Shown: positions 3,790 to 35,050 of the stretch, in pieces
Position numbering within the stretch: position 1 is the first letter of the stretch
Layout of the letters: each line of letters opens with the position of its first letter
Assembly (NCBI GenBank): GCA_041178425.1
Contig: JBEGVH010000010.1
Span: forward strand, 64,001-128,000
DNA from: Pseudomonadota bacterium
GTDB taxonomy: Bacteria; Bdellovibrionota; Bdellovibrionia; Bdellovibrionales; Bdellovibrionaceae
Length of the DNA: 64,000 bases
Direction: 5' to 3'
Translations under genes and position numbers: made by a program
Notes under the pieces: generated by a model
Database searches by the model: none
The model's input: the letters and a program-made list of their open reading frames with translations, nothing else
Told to the model about the DNA's origin: nothing

Positions 3790-4910
3790 CTAAACCGAGC
3801 CTTTTTTGTTTGATCATCACTAGTTTAATCTCGACGACTGTTAAATCAGCCGAGTTTTTTGAATACGGACAATCCATCCGAGCCCTCGGCATGGGCAATG
3901 CTTACTCAGCTGTTGCCAAAGATGGCGATTCCTTATTTTACAACCCTGCCGGACTGGGGCGATCTTCTGGCATCAACTTAACTCTTCTCAATATGAACCT
4001 CGGCCTAAATGGTGAAAATGCTTATAACACCGTACAAAAGGTTTCTCAGTCGACGGGAACTGGGGTTGATAAATTTTCAGAAATTTTTGGTGAACAGCTT
4101 TGGCTCGGTGCTGGAGGAAAAGTAACCCTGACACTCCCTAATTTCGGAATGGGGATTTATGATTCTGGCAGCTCGGGGATTGAATTAAAAGATCCAATCT
4201 TGCCTTATTTTGATATCAACTATGTGAATGATTATGGAATTGTTGTGGGTAGTGCTTTTAAAATTGGGCCTCATTCGCATTTTGGAATCAATGCAAAAAG
4301 AATCAACAGAACCGGAGGACAGCAAGATTTTGGAATCTCAACCTTTTTGAATGGCGACACGCAAACAATTCAAGATAACATTCAAAAAAAGGGTGTTGGT
4401 TACGGAGCCGACATTGGCTTTAGCTGGGAGATTCCCGCTCCTTTTAATCCTGTTGTCTCAGGTGTTTGGAAAGACATTGGAACGACCACTTTTTTGAAGG
4501 TGGGTGGTTCAGAAAAACCACCAAGAATCCTCGACGATCAGACCATTGGGGTGGCTGCTGGTTTTGATTTAGCACTCTTCGGACTTACCACCGCCATCGA
4601 TATCAAACATATCAATGCGACCTCGGAGCCCTTTGGTAAAAAGCTTCACATGGGACTTGAACTTGATCTTCCTCTCCTTGATCTTCGAGGCGGATTCAGT
4701 CAGGGATATTATTCCATAGGAGCTTCTGTTGATTTGCTCTTAATGCAGCTTGATTTGGCCTATTACGGCGTAGAACTCGGAGAGTATCCTGGACAGGATG
4801 AAGATCGTCGAATCTTGCTCGCCCTCACCATGGATCTCGGATTTGATGCTAATCTTAATTTCTTGGACTTTAATTCGAGCAAAGGTAAAAGGCTCAAGCG
4901 CCGCCGATAA
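3777..4910 (+). CDS. Outer-membrane beta-barrel, TraF/FadL/PorV-like
   Basis: Signal peptide, RALGMGNAYSAVA-DGDSLFYNPAGL signature, alternating beta-strand pattern. Overlaps the upstream lipoprotein gene. Confidence 0.7.
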   Translation: MLPLTKPSLFCLIITSLISTTVKSAEFFEYGQSIRALGMGNAYSAVAKDGDSLFYNPAGLGRSSGINLTLLNMNLGLNGENAYNTVQKVSQSTGTGVDKFSEIFGEQLWLGAGGKVTLTLPNFGMGIYDSGSSGIELKDPILPYFDINYVNDYGIVVGSAFKIGPHSHFGINAKRINRTGGQQDFGISTFLNGDTQTIQDNIQKKGVGYGADIGFSWEIPAPFNPVVSGVWKDIGTTTFLKVGGSEKPPRILDDQTIGVAAGFDLALFGLTTAIDIKHINATSEPFGKKLHMGLELDLPLLDLRGGFSQGYYSIGASVDLLLMQLDLAYYGVELGEYPGQDEDRRILLALTMDLGFDANLNFLDFNSSKGKRLKRRR

Positions 4911-25064: not shown

Positions 25065-25688
25065 TTAAAATTGAGAGCGCATTTTTTGATATCCCATAGC
25101 CACAAGCAATCGAATCGCTTCATGCTCCGAGCTTAAATTGAAATGATTTTTAACTTCCTGAATCATTGTCCAACTTCGAGCATCCACCAAATTACGGAGA
25201 TCCGTAATTGTAGGGCTCGAGCTCATGGAGGCGCTGAAAAGTGGGAGACTGGGATCGTTTAGCGGATTTGGCACTCCCCCCAAATAGGAGGCATTGACCA
25301 TGGAACTTGAAGAAGAAACCGGCTGCGGAGAGTTGGAAGAGCTATTTTGAGCGACGAATTGAGAATTTGTAAATCCACCTGGCTGCATGGTTGCAGCTGC
25401 AGTATTGCTGGGTGGATATTTTGTATTCCCCCCCCCAGTTTTATTGGCACTTGGAGATTCTTCAAGATCGCCCATCATACTCGCAAGATTTTTCAGCTCG
25501 GATTTAAAGCCCTGGAGGTTCATTCTACTCAAAGATGTATCACCATGCATTTGGGCGCGCGTATAGAGAGCCACCAACGCTTCGGGAGACTTCGCCAACT
25601 CCTGCACATTGGCGGGCTGTGACCTCAGCCAATTATAGGCCTGAATCAATGTTTCTTTTGTATAAGCCTGTGGTGGCAAATGCATCAT
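25065..25688 (-). CDS. Hypothetical protein (folded ends, S/N/P-rich disordered middle)
   Basis: 207 aa ORF. PPQAYTKETL N-terminus and a helical C-terminus. Confidence 0.65.
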   Translation of the reverse strand: MMHLPPQAYTKETLIQAYNWLRSQPANVQELAKSPEALVALYTRAQMHGDTSLSRMNLQGFKSELKNLASMMGDLEESPSANKTGGGNTKYPPSNTAAATMQPGGFTNSQFVAQNSSSNSPQPVSSSSSMVNASYLGGVPNPLNDPSLPLFSASMSSSPTITDLRNLVDARSWTMIQEVKNHFNLSSEHEAIRLLVAMGYQKMRSQF

Positions 25689-25893: not shown

Positions 25894-27390
25894 TTAAAGA
25901 TTATAATCTTTGGCGTTAATTCCATATTTCTCTATTTTTCTCAATAGAGTCTTCTTAGGAATATTAGCATGGAGTGCCGTTTGATTGATTCTTCCGTTAA
26001 AGGCTTTTAGAGCCCTAATAATGAACTCCTTCTCAAAAGCTTCCTTTTGCATATTAAAATCGAGAGCCGAGTCTGATGAGAGCGTACCGATGTCCCCGAT
26101 CTCGTTATCGTCTTCTTCAGCCTCTTCGAAAGAGTGACTGTCGAGAGCTGACACCTCTAGGGGTCCATTCTTATCTGTATCTAAAGTTAGATTCTGCCAA
26201 GTTTTGAGATTGACTCCCACGGATTGTAAAACAAATTCGGGCAAGGAACCTAATGTGACTCGCTGAGAATTTTCCATGACAAAAGCATGCTCGATCACAT
26301 TCTCAAGTTCACGAATGTTTCCAGGCCAATCATAGCGGCTCAACACCTGCATGGCCGCAGGATCGACTCCAGTCAATTTTTTACCATGCATCTGATTAAA
26401 TTTACGAACAAAGACATTGATCAAGGTTGGAAGGTCCTCGCGCCTCTCGGCAAGCTGAGGCAAAAATATCGGAATAACATTGAGACGATAAAACAAATCT
26501 TCTCTAAACTTACCCTGTTTAATCATGTCTTCGAGAGGCCGATTCGTTGCTGCAATGATGCGGACATTCGAATGAATCTCTCTCAAAGATCCCACTGGAG
26601 TAAACAGTTTCTCCTGAAGAACCCGAAGTAGTTTTACTTGCATATGCAGTGGCAAGTCTCCCACTTCGTCTAAGAAAAGGGTCCCACCCTCGGCAAATTG
26701 AAATTTACCAATCTTTCTTTGATCAGCCCCGGTGAATGAGCCCTTCTCGTGGCCAAAAAACTCCGATTCAAAAAGGTTCTCCGGTATTGCGGAACAATTC
26801 ACAGCAACGAACTTTTCGTCTTTTCTACCTGAATTAAAATGGATAGCTTTCGCGACCACTTCTTTTCCGGTGCCTGAAGCTCCTCGGATCAGTACTGGGG
26901 TGTCGACTTTTGAGACCCGGTCGATGATATTAAAGACTTTTTGCATCTGTGCTGTATTGCCAATAATTTTGCGACCCTGATCCATGAGCACAGGCGCAGA
27001 AACAGCCACATTCGAAATAAGAGAGTGCGCCTCCAGAGCCTTGTCGAGGATCATTATAAGATCATCACCGCTTACCGGCTTTGCTAGGTAATTATAGGCT
27101 CCATCTTTGACAGCCTGAACGGCACTATCGATAGTGGCAAACGCCGTCATGATTAGTACAATTATTTCTGGATTCTTTGCTTTAATCTGACGAAGGGCCT
27201 CAAGGCCATTCATGCGAGGCATGTCTACGTCGAGAAGGATCACGTCATAGGGTTGCTGTAGGTTTTTTTCAACGGCGTCTATTCCGTCAAAGGCTTCATC
27301 GATCTCAAAACGTCCAGAGCTCTGCAAGATTCCCCGCAGACCTTTTCTAAGACCCTCATCATCATCAACCACTAAAACTCTCAGAGCCAT
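25894..27390 (-). CDS. NtrC-family sigma54-dependent response regulator
   Basis: Receiver (VVDDD, LLDVDMP), AAA+ (GASGTGKE, GSFTGA, WPGNIRELEN), acidic linker, C-terminal HTH. Confidence 0.93.
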   Translation of the reverse strand: MALRVLVVDDDEGLRKGLRGILQSSGRFEIDEAFDGIDAVEKNLQQPYDVILLDVDMPRMNGLEALRQIKAKNPEIIVLIMTAFATIDSAVQAVKDGAYNYLAKPVSGDDLIMILDKALEAHSLISNVAVSAPVLMDQGRKIIGNTAQMQKVFNIIDRVSKVDTPVLIRGASGTGKEVVAKAIHFNSGRKDEKFVAVNCSAIPENLFESEFFGHEKGSFTGADQRKIGKFQFAEGGTLFLDEVGDLPLHMQVKLLRVLQEKLFTPVGSLREIHSNVRIIAATNRPLEDMIKQGKFREDLFYRLNVIPIFLPQLAERREDLPTLINVFVRKFNQMHGKKLTGVDPAAMQVLSRYDWPGNIRELENVIEHAFVMENSQRVTLGSLPEFVLQSVGVNLKTWQNLTLDTDKNGPLEVSALDSHSFEEAEEDDNEIGDIGTLSSDSALDFNMQKEAFEKEFIIRALKAFNGRINQTALHANIPKKTLLRKIEKYGINAKDYNL

Positions 27391-27571: not shown

Positions 27572-29449
27572 CTAGGTTAAAACAGGCAGCTCGATCGTAA
27601 ACGTTGAGCCTTTATTTTCGGCACTTATCGCTGATATTTTACCTTTATGAAGCTCCACAAAATATTTTGATAAGTAGAGTCCCAATCCCGAGCCTTTAAC
27701 AGGAGAGTTCTTAGCCTTTCGGCTTCGAAAGAATTTCATGAAAAGGCGAGGCATTTCGTCATCTGGGATGCCGATACCCTGATCAGAAACTTGAATAAGA
27801 ACGCGGTTGTCTTTTTCCTCTGTTCTAATCTTAATTTTTGAATCATTGGGGCTGTACTTGATAGCGTTCTCAATCAAATTGAGAAGCACTTGGCGGATAA
27901 GATCTGCGTCCAATCTCAAGCTAAAAAGTGGTTCCAGCTCTTTTACTATTTTTATTTTTTTCTCTTTGGCCAAATAATCTGTCTTTTGTAGAACTTCTTC
28001 GATGAGAGCATTGATATCTTTGCTCTTTAAATTTAACTGAACCCCTTCACTCTCAATCCGACTGAAGTTCAAAATTGAACTAATAAACCCAAGCAAATCA
28101 TCCGTCGATTTTTGAATCGATTTCAACGCTTGCTTTTGATCATCACTCAAAGGATTTTTATCCCTGAGGACAATTTCTAGCATGCCACTAATTCTTGCTA
28201 GAGGAGTCTTTAGATCATGTGACATCATTCCAATAAAGTTTGATTTAAGCTCCTCCACTTGAGTGAGTAGCTTATTTTTGTGATAGAGCTCCCAACTGCG
28301 ACGATTCTCAACAATAAGGCGATAGGGGATCAAAAAATAGTAGGCCACAAAGATTCCCAGGAGGGGCTGTGCCATGTTCACCCAGTAACCATAGGGCCAA
28401 AATGCAACAAATGTTGCTACCGCAAATAGTAAAACTGACAAGCCAAGAACCATGAGGCCTTTTACTGGAGTCATCGACAAAACGACTTCGACGGTCAGCA
28501 GAACCAAAGTGACAAGCAACAAGATATTAAGCCATTGCGGAACCTTTTGCACACCCGAATTGTGAATCATGGTATTCAACATATTGGCATGAGCCTCGGT
28601 GACTGTCATGGCAGTGACATCGCGGGAGTAAGAGGTGCGGATGTATTCGTGAGTGCTTTCACCCAACTCCGTCCCGATAAAAATGACCTTATTGGTGAAT
28701 TGACCGCTTTCAACCTTACTATTTATGACATCAATAAAATTTGATCGAGAAAAGGATCCCGTGGGAGCCATGTCGATATAGGATTGCTCGCTATCGTAGA
28801 AGTCGAACTTTCCATGAACGGCCTTAATTGAACCTCGCTCGGGAAACAACTGACCTGCCAAGTAGGGATGAAACATCGTTGTACCCTGATAACTTAACAT
28901 CATTCGACGAGTTACACCATCTTGAGCGAGAACTTTAGTATCTGATGTGATCGGACCTGACATAACATGAATTTTATTGAATGGCTCAGGTAAATCTAAT
29001 TTACCTTGTTCGCCTTTCATAGCTAACTCATTAGTAACAAAGTAGACATTTTGCAGACTATCAATCACTGCAACGAAAGCCGCCTTTTCCTCTTCTGTAC
29101 CAACGAGTTCTGCTGGATTCACAACGTAAACAACGGCCTTGGGACCTTCCTCTTTGAGCTTCGAAAGAAGAGCCGTATGATCGGCAATAGTGGGCACTCT
29201 TTTAAGGGCTTCTACAGACGACGGTTCGATCAAGACCAGTTCAATCAAGCCGGTGGTCAGAGGTGCTGATCGAATCACTGTTCGAACGTCATAAAGATAC
29301 GATTCAAAAAAATCGAGGGGTAAGAAAATTATACCGACAGCTAACGCTACGGCCATAAGCCATCGAACGAGTCTGGTCGAAAGTTTCTCTTTAGCATCCA
29401 TACTAATATTTTCAACGCGTCCTTGTGTATTTTCCAAAGTATTACCCAT
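27572..29449 (-). CDS. CHASE2-domain sensor histidine kinase
   Basis: N-terminal TM, periplasmic CHASE2-like region (IELVLIEPSS, DGVTRR, FTNKVIFIG, EAHANML), three TMs, SHDLKTPL, NLIENAIKY, DQGIGI, GSGLGL. Confidence 0.88.
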   Translation of the reverse strand: MGNTLENTQGRVENISMDAKEKLSTRLVRWLMAVALAVGIIFLPLDFFESYLYDVRTVIRSAPLTTGLIELVLIEPSSVEALKRVPTIADHTALLSKLKEEGPKAVVYVVNPAELVGTEEEKAAFVAVIDSLQNVYFVTNELAMKGEQGKLDLPEPFNKIHVMSGPITSDTKVLAQDGVTRRMMLSYQGTTMFHPYLAGQLFPERGSIKAVHGKFDFYDSEQSYIDMAPTGSFSRSNFIDVINSKVESGQFTNKVIFIGTELGESTHEYIRTSYSRDVTAMTVTEAHANMLNTMIHNSGVQKVPQWLNILLLVTLVLLTVEVVLSMTPVKGLMVLGLSVLLFAVATFVAFWPYGYWVNMAQPLLGIFVAYYFLIPYRLIVENRRSWELYHKNKLLTQVEELKSNFIGMMSHDLKTPLARISGMLEIVLRDKNPLSDDQKQALKSIQKSTDDLLGFISSILNFSRIESEGVQLNLKSKDINALIEEVLQKTDYLAKEKKIKIVKELEPLFSLRLDADLIRQVLLNLIENAIKYSPNDSKIKIRTEEKDNRVLIQVSDQGIGIPDDEMPRLFMKFFRSRKAKNSPVKGSGLGLYLSKYFVELHKGKISAISAENKGSTFTIELPVLT

Positions 29450-29481: not shown

Positions 29482-29643
29482 CTAATCTCGGTCAATGATA
29501 TTCCCTGTAGGAATGCAACCCAGGCCTTCGGTCGTTGGGATGAAAGTCTTAGCACTCTCTCCTGATTTGATAACCCGACTCGATGAAGGGGTAGCTTTTT
29601 TCTTGCTCGTCAATTTTGGTTTACAAATCTTAATATGCTTCAC
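29482..29643 (-). CDS. Putative RiPP (ranthipeptide-like) precursor peptide, 53 aa: MKHIKICKPKLTSKKKATPSSSRVIKSGESAKTFIPTTEGLGCIPTGNIIDRD
   Basis: GTG start at 29643 with AGGAG RBS 8 nt upstream. Overlaps the radical SAM 3' end by 14 nt. MKHIK N-terminus resembles SCIFF/QhpC leaders. This is the C-terminal half of track ORF 29482..29805. Confidence 0.65.
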   Translation of the reverse strand: MKHIKICKPKLTSKKKATPSSSRVIKSGESAKTFIPTTEGLGCIPTGNIIDRD

Positions 29644-30922
29644 CGTTAAAACTCCTGTATTTTTCATAGTAAATAAATAGTGTTGAGATTGTATTTTTAG
29701 TTCTATCGCAAAAGTCCTGATCGACACGATCTTTGGAATGGGTACCCCGACTATGGATATACTGACACCCTCCGCCACATAGGAAGCGCGCCCAACAGCT
29801 TCCACAGTTCCGACTTTGCAGTTGAGACTGAGCGTATTTTGGGAGATTCACCAAAACACTCTCTCTCTCCTGACCTAAGCTTAATTGCCTATCACTGATC
29901 TCCCAAGGACAACTGAACAAAGAGCCCCTTGCATCCATCGAGAGCATGGACTTTCCGGCACCGCAGAAATTTTCCACCCGCACCTGATCGTCTAATCGCT
30001 GGAAGATCGAATCAAAATGACGAATCTTGCGTAACTCACACTCTCCGCCAATAGCATCGGCCAATGCAGCGACCTCCGACAATTCTTTTGCAAAACTTTT
30101 ACTGGCTTCCGAATCGAAATCCGTATGAGAGAAGTTCAGTTCATAAAAATCGAAGTTCCATCGGCGAAAATAATCATAAGTCTGAACAATCTCGAGATGA
30201 TCCTTATGAAAAACTGCAGACAGTCCTACGCTTGGAAGCTGTTCTTTTATTAATGAGAGTTGTTTAAGGCCAGCCTCGAGGATAGAACTTGAGGGAGTGC
30301 CAGCCTTGGTTGGACGAAACTTATCTTGAACGTGCGGTGGACCATCTACGCTGACTGTGACTGCTATTTTAAACTTTATCAAGAGGGCTAAAACAGAAAC
30401 GTCTAAAAGACGCGTCCCATTCGTCACTACAGCAAACCGAACATTGATTTTATTAGTGGCCCCAAAATCTTGGGCCCATTGCGCCACTTGGCTAATAGTC
30501 TCAGGATAGAGGAGAGGCTCCCCTCCTAAGAAGTTTATTTGAAAACTTGTGCCCTCTTCACATTGGCGGATCAGCCACTCTAATTGCGGAAGTCCTTTTT
30601 TTAAATCAAACTTAACTTGAGGGTCGCCATAGGTGCCGTCACCCCCCGCCGCACAATAGGTGCATTTTAAATTACAGAGTTGGGTTGCATTTACGGTGAT
30701 GGTTCGAATTTTTTGAGCAAGCGTAGAGGTTTTGCAGCTCTCACTAACAGATTCAGACCAAGACTTTAGTTCAGTTAATTCTTCAGATTGCTTACCCGCT
30801 TCAAAGGAATCGACAAGCGAAGGGCTCAAGCGAGCCACCTCAAGATTCACATTGTGAAACCCTACAAATTCATTTGGCCCCGTTTTAAAGATGGAAACAT
30901 TTCCGAATTGAGCTGGTGTCAT
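29630..30922 (-). CDS. Radical SAM/SPASM peptide maturase (CteB/QhpD/anSME-like)
   Basis: CNLKCTYC, FLGGEPLL, VTNGT, SVDG. SPASM cysteines CGAG...C, CGSCWARFLCGGGC...C. About 70-aa N-terminal extension compatible with an RRE. Confidence 0.9.
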   Translation of the reverse strand: MTPAQFGNVSIFKTGPNEFVGFHNVNLEVARLSPSLVDSFEAGKQSEELTELKSWSESVSESCKTSTLAQKIRTITVNATQLCNLKCTYCAAGGDGTYGDPQVKFDLKKGLPQLEWLIRQCEEGTSFQINFLGGEPLLYPETISQVAQWAQDFGATNKINVRFAVVTNGTRLLDVSVLALLIKFKIAVTVSVDGPPHVQDKFRPTKAGTPSSSILEAGLKQLSLIKEQLPSVGLSAVFHKDHLEIVQTYDYFRRWNFDFYELNFSHTDFDSEASKSFAKELSEVAALADAIGGECELRKIRHFDSIFQRLDDQVRVENFCGAGKSMLSMDARGSLFSCPWEISDRQLSLGQERESVLVNLPKYAQSQLQSRNCGSCWARFLCGGGCQYIHSRGTHSKDRVDQDFCDRTKNTISTLFIYYEKYRSFNGEAY

Positions 30923-30964: not shown

Positions 30965-30981
30965 TTGCAAAAAGAGTGCCT
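30965..30981 (-). promoter_or_regulatory. Sigma54 -24/-12 promoter upstream of the radical SAM gene
   Basis: Minus strand AGGCACTCTTTTTGCAA: GG-N10-GC with GGCAC and TTGCA, about 43 nt upstream of ATG 30922. Confidence 0.65.
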
Positions 30982-31074: not shown

Positions 31075-31095
31075 AGGGGCAATAGGATTGCCCCT
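31075..31095 (-). terminator. Hairpin/terminator after the 31101-31490 gene
   Basis: AGGGGCAAT-AGG-ATTGCCCCT, a perfect 9-bp stem with a weak U-tract. Confidence 0.6.
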
Positions 31096-31100
31096 GAGTG

Positions 31101-31490
31101 TTAATTCATCTTGGTTTTGACTTTAAAGCTCGCCGAGGAAGAGCAGACATGCCCCTCTGCGCCTGAGGACACACAAGACATCTTACCGCAGTCCATAGAG
31201 ATGATTTTATTGTCTTTATTAAGCTCTTTTAGTTCCTTTTTCCAATCGGCACAGGCTTTTTTCCAAGAGCCGCGGGCTTCCTTAATTAAAACACTCGGAT
31301 CGCCTTCGATCTCTGCGCTTCCGCTGACGATCTCGAACAATCTGTCTCCCTTGGCGACTGAATCGCCCTTTCGAATAGAGATTGTCGTCTCTTCGTTCGT
31401 TGGTATATCGGTTACGGCCGTCTTTTGCGCCAAAGAAAGAGTCGCATTTAAGCTGATTGCAACACAAATCCAAACACTTATTTTTCTCAT
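31101..31490 (-). CDS. Small secreted Cys-containing hypothetical protein
   Basis: Signal peptide ending SLA and four Cys in the mature part (WKKACADWKKE...C..MSC...C). Confidence 0.7.
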   Translation of the reverse strand: MRKISVWICVAISLNATLSLAQKTAVTDIPTNEETTISIRKGDSVAKGDRLFEIVSGSAEIEGDPSVLIKEARGSWKKACADWKKELKELNKDNKIISMDCGKMSCVSSGAEGHVCSSSASFKVKTKMN

Positions 31491-34207: not shown

Positions 34208-34479
34208 TTTTGTCGGAAGAACGCCAACTCCACTTCGCTCGAGTTCTGACTGATGAACTCTGGAATGACGACCTCGTCGATTACTCTGATGATGATCTCG
34301 CACTAAGGGTGGCTCGCCAAGCGATCACTGAATTTGTTAAAGAGGATCTAGAAATCGATCAAAAAGCGAGAGAAAAAGTAGCAAGCTTAAAACGTTCTGT
34401 GATAGAAAGCTCCCCCGAGTGGGAAATCCTATACAAAAAATATTATGAAGAAGAGAGGAATCGTCGTGGCAGCAAATAA
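34204..34479 (+). CDS. DUF507-like protein
   Basis: MILSEER...IDQKAREKVASLKRSVIESSPEWEILYKKYYEEE. ATGA overlap with the upstream gene. Confidence 0.75.
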   Translation: MILSEERQLHFARVLTDELWNDDLVDYSDDDLALRVARQAITEFVKEDLEIDQKAREKVASLKRSVIESSPEWEILYKKYYEEERNRRGSK

Positions 34480-35050
34480 AAAACAAAAAAATAAGCCAGC
34501 AAAAAAAGCAACCCCAAAGAAGGTCACTGCAAAGAAGTCTTCTGCGAAGGTGGCTAAGCCGAAGGCAACCAAAACCAAGATCGTAAAAAAAGTGAGCCCA
34601 GCAAAAAAGGCAAAATCGGCTAAGAAGACAGCGACGAACAAGAAAAAACCGACCAAATCATCTCCCAAAGCTGTCGCTAAAGCGAAAAAATTGACCCCAA
34701 CAAAGACCGCTAGCAAAAAGCCGGCAGCTACTAAACCTACCACCGCCAAAACAAAAGCTTGGATGAAGCCGCTGGATGATCGCCTCTTAGTTGAACTCAT
34801 CGAAGCCGACCAAGTCAGCCAAGGCGGAATCATTCTCGTTGATTCATCAATTCAACCTGAAAATCTTGAGGGCTTTGTCACTGCGATCGGGCGCGGTCAC
34901 CAAAATAAAAAAGGCCGTATTCATCCGATTGAGCTCAAAGTTGGAGATAAAATTATTTTTTCCAAATACGCAGGTGACAAGGTCTCCCATAATGGTGTTA
35001 ATTTTGTAATTATTCGCGAAACTGACGTATTAGGCTTCGCTGCCAATTAA
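34466..35050 (+). CDS. groES: Co-chaperonin GroES with Lys/Ala/Pro-rich N-terminal extension
   Basis: C-terminal MKPLDDRLLV...GGIILVD...VGDKIIFSKYAG...IIRETDVLG. About 100-aa K/A/P/T-rich tail. GTG 34466 follows GAGAGG. Confidence 0.88.
   Translation: MAANKKQKNKPAKKATPKKVTAKKSSAKVAKPKATKTKIVKKVSPAKKAKSAKKTATNKKKPTKSSPKAVAKAKKLTPTKTASKKPAATKPTTAKTKAWMKPLDDRLLVELIEADQVSQGGIILVDSSIQPENLEGFVTAIGRGHQNKKGRIHPIELKVGDKIIFSKYAGDKVSHNGVNFVIIRETDVLGFAAN

Follow-up and report, generated by a model that had tools for sequence, protein, structure and literature searches.

A short open reading frame (ORF) that begins within the last codons of a radical S-adenosylmethionine (rSAM) gene raises the question whether it encodes a peptide on which this enzyme acts and, if so, what the enzyme would make of it. 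The ORF is 53 amino acids (aa) long and lies in a stretch of 64,000 nt from a member of the Bdellovibrionaceae (contig JBEGVH010000010.1, positions 64,001-128,000, assembly GCA_041178425.1), called the window below. It is very probably a real precursor, bound by the adjacent radical-SAM/SPASM enzyme: a homologue of the peptide follows the enzyme gene in 100/100 loci and is constrained at the codon level. A single thioether starting from Cys43 is the likely modification, and the conserved Pro45 is a tentative acceptor, with chances slightly below even.

The first-pass annotation of the window had described an AGGAG-N8-GTG start in the last codons of the rSAM gene, and the sequence reads as it stated. 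The GTG occupies 29643-29641, the rSAM stop codon 29632-29630, and the ORF is closed by a TAG at 29484-29482. The peptide contains two Cys (Cys7 and Cys43), nine Lys and two Arg, and an EGLGC flanked on each side by IPT. The ORF had also been called hidden. This holds for the program-made ORF list, where the frame appears only as part of a 107-aa ORF, but not for Bdellovibrio bacteriovorus HD100, where the copy is annotated: the 38-aa peptide of the named locus L069 is identical to Q6MI21/CAE78161.1 (Bd3358, hypothetical), a gene of 117 nt between Bd3357 and Bd3359 according to the supplement of PMC3627812, with Q6MI22 and Q6MI20 as the accessions of these two neighbors.

For comparison, 110 loci were collected around homologues of the enzyme. 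Ten were dropped, three of them without the 3' end of the enzyme gene and seven with distant enzymes of other phyla; the remaining 100 count the window as one locus and contain duplicates shared by the two collections. A leader-plus-Cys peptide was located by script in 97 of these and the other three were read by eye. After a false row (L081) was removed and the second copy in L067 was added, the set comprised 90 distinct peptides; related loci are not independent, and the conservation counts overstate significance. The peptide was also present in 29/29 further loci from the search of one genus and in 16/18 loci of another set, where one miss was due to a truncated contig and the other concerned an enzyme from outside the clade. 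The window's genome holds one sole match to the peptide profile, and a search of it with the SCIFF precursor family TIGR03973 gave no match. The enzyme itself was matched in 34/36 other genomes of the family, in 43/44 genomes of one genus and in 44/301 genomes across the phylum, 42 of these within the order, and its named relatives are Bdellovibrionales. Two contigs labelled 'Bacillota bacterium' (L080) and 'bacterium' (L084) hold the complete Bdellovibrio-type operon and are probably mislabelled or misbinned.

A strict pattern of leader, C(x)P core and stop codon was found beside the rSAM stop in 91/100 loci, compared with 0 antisense and 1.5 in shuffled sequences, the pattern being built from the same sequences. 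Nucleotide identity was computed for the 75 peptides without overlap with the rSAM gene: for the first/second/third codon position the leader block gives 0.77/0.88/0.45 and the core block 0.77/0.81/0.39. A start codon and a Shine-Dalgarno (SD)-like word lie at most 16 codons upstream of the leader His in 83/90 peptides, and the reading frame is maintained across length changes among homologues. Conservation in 100/100 loci, together with the variation at third positions, the start signals and the maintained frame, argues against an artefact of intergenic or overlapping sequence, which we regard as extremely improbable even though only 1 and 3 reads fall on the peptide gene in one RNA-seq table and the Bd3358 product is missing from proteome tables (see below). 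As alternative starts, an in-frame ATG eight codons upstream and the 107-aa ORF were rejected, as close relatives carry ATG exactly at the GTG position. A lipoprotein reading (LGC resembles a lipobox, and lspA and lgt are nearby) was also discarded; there is no hydrophobic segment, and Gly-1 occurs in only 43/90 peptides.

The leader had been described as SCIFF/QhpC-type with an MKHIK start, SCIFF and QhpC substrates beginning with MKH[I/L]K according to that annotation. Its KHI-type character is retained in the family, with His in 71, Ile in 82 and Lys in 77 of the 90 peptides, followed by Lys in 79, Val/Ile in 74, Lys in 63 and Pro in 74, but a literal MKH[I/V]K start is found in just 16/90. 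The linker from the leader His to the core Cys spans 17-47 residues, is rich in K, T, S, G, A and P and is not conserved. In the core, Cys43 is present in 90/90 peptides, a number given by construction since this Cys is the anchor that defines the rows, and the +2 position is Pro in 85, Glu in three and Val in two. Pro45, which the first-pass annotation had missed along with the sigma-54 operon with its kinase and activator, is the sole other conserved core residue. The +1 position is Ile or Val in 60/90 peptides and the +3 position Val, Thr, Ser, Leu or Ile in 80/90; Gly is found at -3 in 59/90. The tail after the Cys has 3-20 residues, and 32/90 peptides stop four residues after it. A single Cys is present from the leader His onward in 84/90 peptides, and Cys7 is confined to five same-genus peptides, where it takes the Val/Ile position of the leader. 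The proposal of Cys43 as the single donor is supported. The two Cys, the basic composition and the IPT-flanked core do occur here, but the IPT repeat (1/90) is private to this genome, and of the proposed GC core only the Cys is conserved. Glu39, Asp51, the IPT repeat and Cys7 were rejected as functional features for lack of conservation. In three loci (L011, L057 and L067) the precursor gene is found in two tandem copies with different cores downstream of the rSAM gene.

The peptide was predicted to found a new subfamily, and the searches agree with an undescribed family. Sixty members compared with NCBIfam and Pfam gave no family match at E below 0.07, the peptide profile gave no credible match in PDB, Pfam and NCBIfam, and the best score in an ESM Atlas search (0.84) was within chance. 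No description of the peptide-enzyme system was found in the literature searched, mostly listings, with subscription journals and bioRxiv supplements aside. The supplement of an rSAM-RiPP compendium (RiPP: a peptide made by ribosomes and then post-translationally modified; PMC10288494) contains no match for Bdellovibrio, Oligoflex or Q6MI22, but it lists accessions, so other strains could escape.

The enzyme has a layout typical of the ranthipeptide class, in which an rSAM/SPASM enzyme with a RiPP recognition element (RRE) adjoins a Cys-containing precursor. Its invariant SPASM Cys are residues 320, 338, 373, 376, 382, 386 and 405, and six of them align to Cys of CteB, the SCIFF maturase. Because this seven-Cys pattern is common to both enzymes, auxiliary cluster I would have three Cys ligands and an open iron site. 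Among solved structures CteB matches best, both by sequence (E 1.8e-23) and by fold (template modelling score 0.79), and anSME-type enzymes match more weakly. The model of the enzyme (mean predicted local distance difference test, pLDDT, 91.9) has three strands and helices at the N-terminus, as in an RRE, in line with the RRE that had been suspected there. However, the enzyme scores below the cut-off of every NCBIfam profile (Nif11-type 159/519, PapB 153.9/340, QhpD 122.9/453, SCIFF TIGR03974 102.5/425 and GggB 44.8/650 bits), and so did 10/10 family members tested, among which the best TIGR03974 score was 151. The database names 'heme biosynthesis protein' (Bd3357) and 'SCIFF peptide maturase' given to the enzyme family (P0028, P0031, Bd3357) are unsupported by these scores. 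In a quick tree of 75 proteins with midpoint root, 35 family rows form one branch (Shimodaira-Hasegawa-like approximate likelihood ratio test 99) apart from SCIFF-, Nif11- and PapB-like rows.

The active site differs as well. Six catalytic-site residues have been defined, which in CteB are F-F-T-S-H-Q (PMC10288494); the same mapping returns exactly F-F-T-S-H-Q for the SCIFF maturase of L109, whereas the enzyme of the window carries A-L-V-S-P-W and matches CteB at 1/6. In 114 family loci positions 5-6 are never His, Arg or Lys but Pro-Trp or x-Trp, with Trp at position 6 in 110, while PapB-family members above the cut-off carry His-Arg at these positions. The Arg of the PapB-type His-Arg pair holds the acceptor carboxylate. 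The absence of His, Arg and Lys, and with it of the His-Gln or His-Arg pair that known ranthisynthases have, fits a non-acidic acceptor, and judged from its residues the pocket is turned hydrophobic and aromatic. Distant rSAM relatives with the catalytic residues Y-F-T-S-H-R are adjoined by Nif11-leader-like peptides, upstream in L102 and downstream in L105.

A complex of enzyme, peptide, SAM and three clusters was modelled. The complex scored 0.90 compared with 0.02 for the best control; the mark used is reached by 116/157 solved complexes and 2/215 mismatched pairs, counts that are only roughly applicable here. The runs share at least 57% of contacts, with a partner pLDDT of at least 46. Peptide residues 1-11 lie on RRE residues 28-33 and 47-55, and residues 3-7 pair with the enzyme strand 28-33, so that the predicted leader docking was recovered in the model. 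Residues 39-46 of the peptide contact enzyme residues 166, 318-321, 339-340 and 386, including Cys320, Pro339-Trp340 and Cys386 in the active-site region.

These data can be joined into one scheme. The KHIKxxKP leader would bind the RRE as a beta-strand, and the variable linker would allow the core into the active site; there the thiolate of Cys43 would bind the open iron of auxiliary cluster I. According to reviews, such an open iron on one auxiliary cluster is bound by a substrate Cys in CteB. The 5'-deoxyadenosyl radical would then abstract a hydrogen from Pro45, two residues downstream, and one C-S bond would close a ring of 9 or 10 members, fused to the pyrrolidine. C-gamma would be the likelier carbon by comparison with CteA produced in E. 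coli, where a Cys32-Thr34 link at C-gamma in the same i+2 register is reported in vivo (PMC8172795, PMC8326336); in vitro work on CteA gave Thr37 instead. Enzyme, peptide, CHASE2 kinase and activator would share one sigma-54 promoter, which is probably self-activated; the operon would rise after prey entry, as HD100 transcripts show, and the modified peptide would be an output or modulator of the two-component circuit and not an obligate ligand of the kinase. The scheme as a whole, a one-crosslink RiPP made by the adjacent enzyme through these steps, is about an even bet. Cys43-Pro45 is favored because +2 offers a gamma C-H in 90/90 peptides and is nearly always Pro, because the register is that of CteA and because the pocket appears hydrophobic and aromatic; an sp3 C-gamma-H is available at +3 in 68, at -3 in 18 and at -4 in 58 peptides. 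If true, a Cys-Pro thioether would be a fused bicyclic link.

Several points weigh against this scheme. A literature search on proline acceptors, which covered one review only, by listing, found no precedent for a Cys-Pro link. Other neighbors of the donor could react, as +1 has a C-gamma-H in 86/90 peptides and a C-beta in 90/90, +3 has a C-beta in 89/90 and no peptide ends before +3; Pro+2 could merely shape a turn. Five of the 90 peptides lack Pro+2, four of which have Pro at +1. In a subgroup (L089, L096, L099, L170 and L173) Cys-Pro-Glu replaces Cys-x-Pro and the linker is longer and helix-like, and the enzymes of this subgroup have no compensating basic residue: just two columns (294 and 307) differ from the rest, neither gaining one. 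The complex model leaves the acceptor unspecified, does not say which residue faces SAM and is uncertain in the fold of the peptide itself, and its score may echo the solved CteB-CteA leader complex. With the catalytic-site match to CteB at 1/6 the reaction may not be CteB-like. Neither a protease nor an exporter was found among the operon genes, nor a C39 peptidase anywhere in the genome, other transporter families not being searched. Finally, Bd3358 was not found in those PMC12546842 proteome tables that hold Bd3357, Bd3359 and Bd3360, by a locus-tag search of part of the files.

The first-pass annotation had named Glu39, a Thr or Asp51 as acceptor. A PapB- or QhpD-like link of Cys43 to one of the two acidic residues is very improbable. 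This peptide does have both residues, the modelled interface (39-46) includes Glu39, and the enzyme's top matches include the PapB and QhpD profiles, but Glu-4 occurs in 7/90, Asp+8 in 12/90 and an acidic residue at +4 in 4/90 peptides, 32/90 peptides end before +8 is reached, and the His-Arg pair of PapB is replaced throughout the family. PapB moreover requires Cys-x3-Asp and the acceptor carboxylate. Thr46 is a weak possibility; Thr is found at +3 in 20/90 peptides. It belongs to a wider alternative in which the same Cys closes another small ring, either to +3 with the Pro as turn or by an alpha-carbon (sactionine) link to +1, +2, -1 or Gly-3, as in QmpB, GggB and KgrC products. The shortest tail of exactly three residues, the C-beta at +3 and the frequent Gly-3 would suit it, and GggB and QmpB look like ranthisynthases yet make alpha-thioethers (PMC10288494), the rings of QmpB having one intervening residue (PMC13361665). 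However, +3, -1 and -3 are chemically mixed compared with the near-invariant +2, and we consider this alternative rather unlikely. An enteropeptin-like arrangement was rejected, because in enteropeptin (MKGOCPPS) the Cys is linked to the preceding residue, whereas -1 varies here.

It is also conceivable, though unlikely, that no thioether is made at all. Cys-x-Pro could undergo anSME-like Cys oxidation, Pro desaturation or a small cofactor-like excision, or the peptide could bind without turnover and turn the Fe-S protein into an iron, redox or SAM sensor for the two-component system. The separate clade and the catalytic-site profile unlike that of CteB speak for such chemistry, as do a core with just two conserved residues, the export and cleavage genes that were not found, and the different fitness of rSAM and kinase transposon mutants (see below). 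On the other hand, RRE, leader, three-Cys auxiliary cluster I and invariant substrate Cys are the layout of a thioether synthase, and the anSME-type enzymes are the weaker matches. Returning to the Cys43-Pro45 link, thioether chemistry at proline is what the altered active site and the Cys-x-Pro core would lead one to expect, and the Cys-Pro-Glu subgroup offers a natural test of the register. 'Ranthipeptide', meaning sulfur bound to a non-alpha carbon, is a predicted class only, and the class name must await chemistry because the ranthisynthase-like GggB and QmpB make alpha-linked small rings.

By its parts the system seems to work like a CteB-type thioether RiPP system, yet outside the SCIFF, PapB and QhpD families. 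With SCIFF/thermocellin (CteA/CteB; TIGR03973/TIGR03974; PDB 5WGG, 5WHY) it shares the KHI-type leader, the RRE-rSAM-SPASM architecture and the seven SPASM Cys. The SCIFF of L109 starts its leader with KKHIR and has a His-to-donor spacing of 29, inside the range of the family, and precursors of the thermocellin group start with MKHIKK (PMC10288494 supplement). Unlike SCIFF, with six Cys in about 45 residues and, in CteA, Thr at +2, the core here has one Cys and a Pro at +2, and the precursor gene is downstream of the enzyme, within an operon of Gram-negative predators that also encodes a two-component system. PapB/freyrasin (NF047865) and QhpD/QhpC (TIGR03906) belong to the same broad maturase group, with leader-RRE recognition and a Cys donor N-terminal to the acceptor, but the present peptides have neither Cys-x3-Asp nor a conserved acidic acceptor, and, unlike in the QhpD/QhpC system, the peptide has no Trp and the neighbors are PBP1B, kinase and regulator, with no amine-dehydrogenase genes beside it. 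Very small Cys rings and signalling-tied clusters are also found with QmpB (suisactin), GggB (streptosactin) and KgrC (enteropeptin), QmpB with i+2 spacing; theirs, however, are streptococcal Rgg/SHP-controlled clusters, and the accessible parts of these sources mention no Pro acceptor.

Positions of the precursor, its enzyme and the neighboring operon features in the window
Feature	Position	Strand	Remark
Precursor peptide gene, 53 aa, GTG start	29482..29643	-	homologue of HD100 Bd3358; overlaps last 14 nt of rSAM gene
Leader motif K-H-I-K-I-C-K-P	29617..29640	-	family consensus KHIKKVKP; modelled as beta-strand on RRE
Core Cys43-Ile-Pro45-Thr46	29506..29517	-	Cys 90/90 (anchor), Pro+2 85/90
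Shine-Dalgarno AGGAG	29652..29656	-	8 nt before GTG
Radical SAM/SPASM maturase, 430 aa	29630..30922	-	N-terminal RRE, CxxxCxxC (83/87/90), seven invariant SPASM Cys; homologue of Bd3357
Membrane histidine kinase, CHASE2 sensor domain (periplasmic by inferred topology)	27572..29449	-	homologue of Bd3359
NtrC-type sigma-54-dependent response regulator	25894..27390	-	homologue of Bd3360
Sigma-54 -24/-12 promoter-like site GG-N10-GC	30967..30980	-	45 nt before rSAM ATG
Inverted repeat, candidate activator site or candidate terminator of upstream gene	31076..31094		weak as activator site (6.2 bits)

The kinase gene begins 32 nt after the precursor ORF and is followed by the regulator gene. A kinase is directly downstream of the peptide in 97/100 loci, and the regulator follows in 54/57 loci with enough sequence. 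The operon is rearranged in L037 (and L004), L040, L003 and L085, with either both kinase and regulator or just the regulator placed upstream on the other strand; these genes diverge from the rSAM gene but are still its neighbors. With a scored pattern, which replaced an earlier strict one matching only 19/96, a sigma-54 site was detected upstream of the rSAM gene in 83/97 loci compared with 2 antisense and 0 inside the gene. A word resembling an integration host factor (IHF) site is present in 36/77 promoters, 27 of them at one position, and in 13 shuffled ones; a candidate activator site is found in 50/77 versus 0.8 in shuffles, with a motif trained on the same set and weak in this genome. 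A scan for sigma-70 promoters and terminators remained at chance level. Self-activation of the operon is plausible from these sites. In a regulon scan of this genome 8/418 sigma-54-like sites passed, most of them inside genes. Two intergenic ones with the candidate activator motif, at C17:53462 (+) and C11:13913 (-), each lie just before a small protein whose start resembles a signal peptide, and they are possible targets of the regulator.

The kinase also occurs alone with its regulator. It was matched in 62/301 genomes, 20 of which have no rSAM match; in 16/16 loci fetched from those 20, kinase and regulator stand without enzyme or peptide upstream, and ten have a sigma-54 site directly before the kinase. 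Because the pair also occurs without the peptide, the modified peptide looks like an output or modulator of the circuit and not the obligate ligand of the kinase. The simplest reading would be a two-component operon under its own control in which, within one branch of the order, the enzyme-peptide cassette is carried along as cargo or serves as a modulator. The CHASE2 domain was modelled with a pLDDT of 93, and its invariant residues (D-x(10)-R-R, a Gly and a Gln) are candidates for a ligand site. By sequence and Foldseek the domain has no match among solved structures and hence gives no hint of a ligand.

In agr-type operons precursor, modifying enzyme, membrane kinase and regulator form one autoregulated operon; the gene layout and the sigma-54 site seen here would suit the same arrangement. 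With any of the chemistries above, the modified peptide could be an exported autoinducer sensed by the CHASE2 kinase, in an agr-like positive loop that reports confinement in prey. The close linkage of kinase and regulator, which stay with the cassette after rearrangement in L037, L040 and L085, the conserved sigma-54 and IHF-like sites, the joint induction on prey entry and core flanks as variable as pherotypes all favor such a loop, and SCIFF-derived ranthipeptides are reportedly involved in quorum sensing. Nevertheless, the autoinducer is somewhat unlikely: the kinase-regulator pair persists without enzyme and peptide, neither signal peptide nor exporter nor protease was found at the operon level, and kinase insertions are fit while rSAM insertions are mildly low. 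Sigma-54/NtrC output and a CHASE2 sensor further set the operon apart from the agr type. Quite unlikely is a more far-reaching version of the Cys-Pro scheme, in which the new-clade enzyme forms the thioether, the product accumulates inside the closed prey cell as a confinement signal, which tunes a sigma-54 two-component switch for intraperiplasmic growth of Bdellovibrio, and the cassette was added to an older autoregulated kinase-activator operon.

Expression of the operon was taken from published data. On prey entry Bd3357, Bd3358, Bd3359 and Bd3360 are up 1.6-, 2.2-, 2.2- and 3.0-fold by microarray, and all four are in the 'predatosome' sheet (PMC2797640 supplement). Enzyme, kinase and regulator were seen in the proteome with 18, 29 and 27 peptides, the regulator with a log2 fold change of 1.96 at 3 h (PMC12546842 supplement). 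Transposon sequencing of strain 109J in a host-independent background, with genes matched by order and name, lists W of 0.57-0.80 for rSAM insertions, 2.05-2.45 for kinase insertions and ND for the regulator (PMC6561027 supplement). As neighboring genes span W <0.2 to >3 and hits are called at W<0.1 in that source, the fitness effect of rSAM insertions is mild at best. RNA contigs of four studies cover the operon. In two of them one contig begins at L069 position 4001 or 4003, which is 6-8 nt beyond the start expected from the sigma-54 site at 3970-3983, and extends over the enzyme, peptide, kinase and regulator genes; the contig of the third study begins at 4040, and that of the fourth continues upstream. 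The contig ends are a weak hint that agrees with co-transcription from the sigma-54 start.

Bd3357 and Bd3358, which have long been annotated in the model predator, the first wrongly as 'heme biosynthesis' and the second as 'hypothetical', are thereby offered a function class; both go up when prey is invaded, and the enzyme is near-core in the family. The operon would provide a concrete small-molecule candidate for what Bdellovibrio senses inside its prey, while the genomic evidence argues against the peptide as the only input of the kinase.

Three further genes of the window were recorded. A 207-aa gene at 25065-25688 (-) follows the regulator in many loci, including 13/16 without the rSAM cassette, and is perhaps part of the two-component unit. 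A 129-aa protein encoded at 31101-31490 (-), in the interval from PBP1B to the rSAM promoter, has a signal-peptide-like start, four Cys and no family match, and is present in same-genus loci only. A 201-aa ORF at 34445-35050 (+) has a long Lys/Ala-rich N-terminal extension and a C-terminal half that, going by a motif we take to be that of GroES, presumably resembles this protein; L190 and L192 have Lys-rich ORFs of this sort opposite PBP1B.

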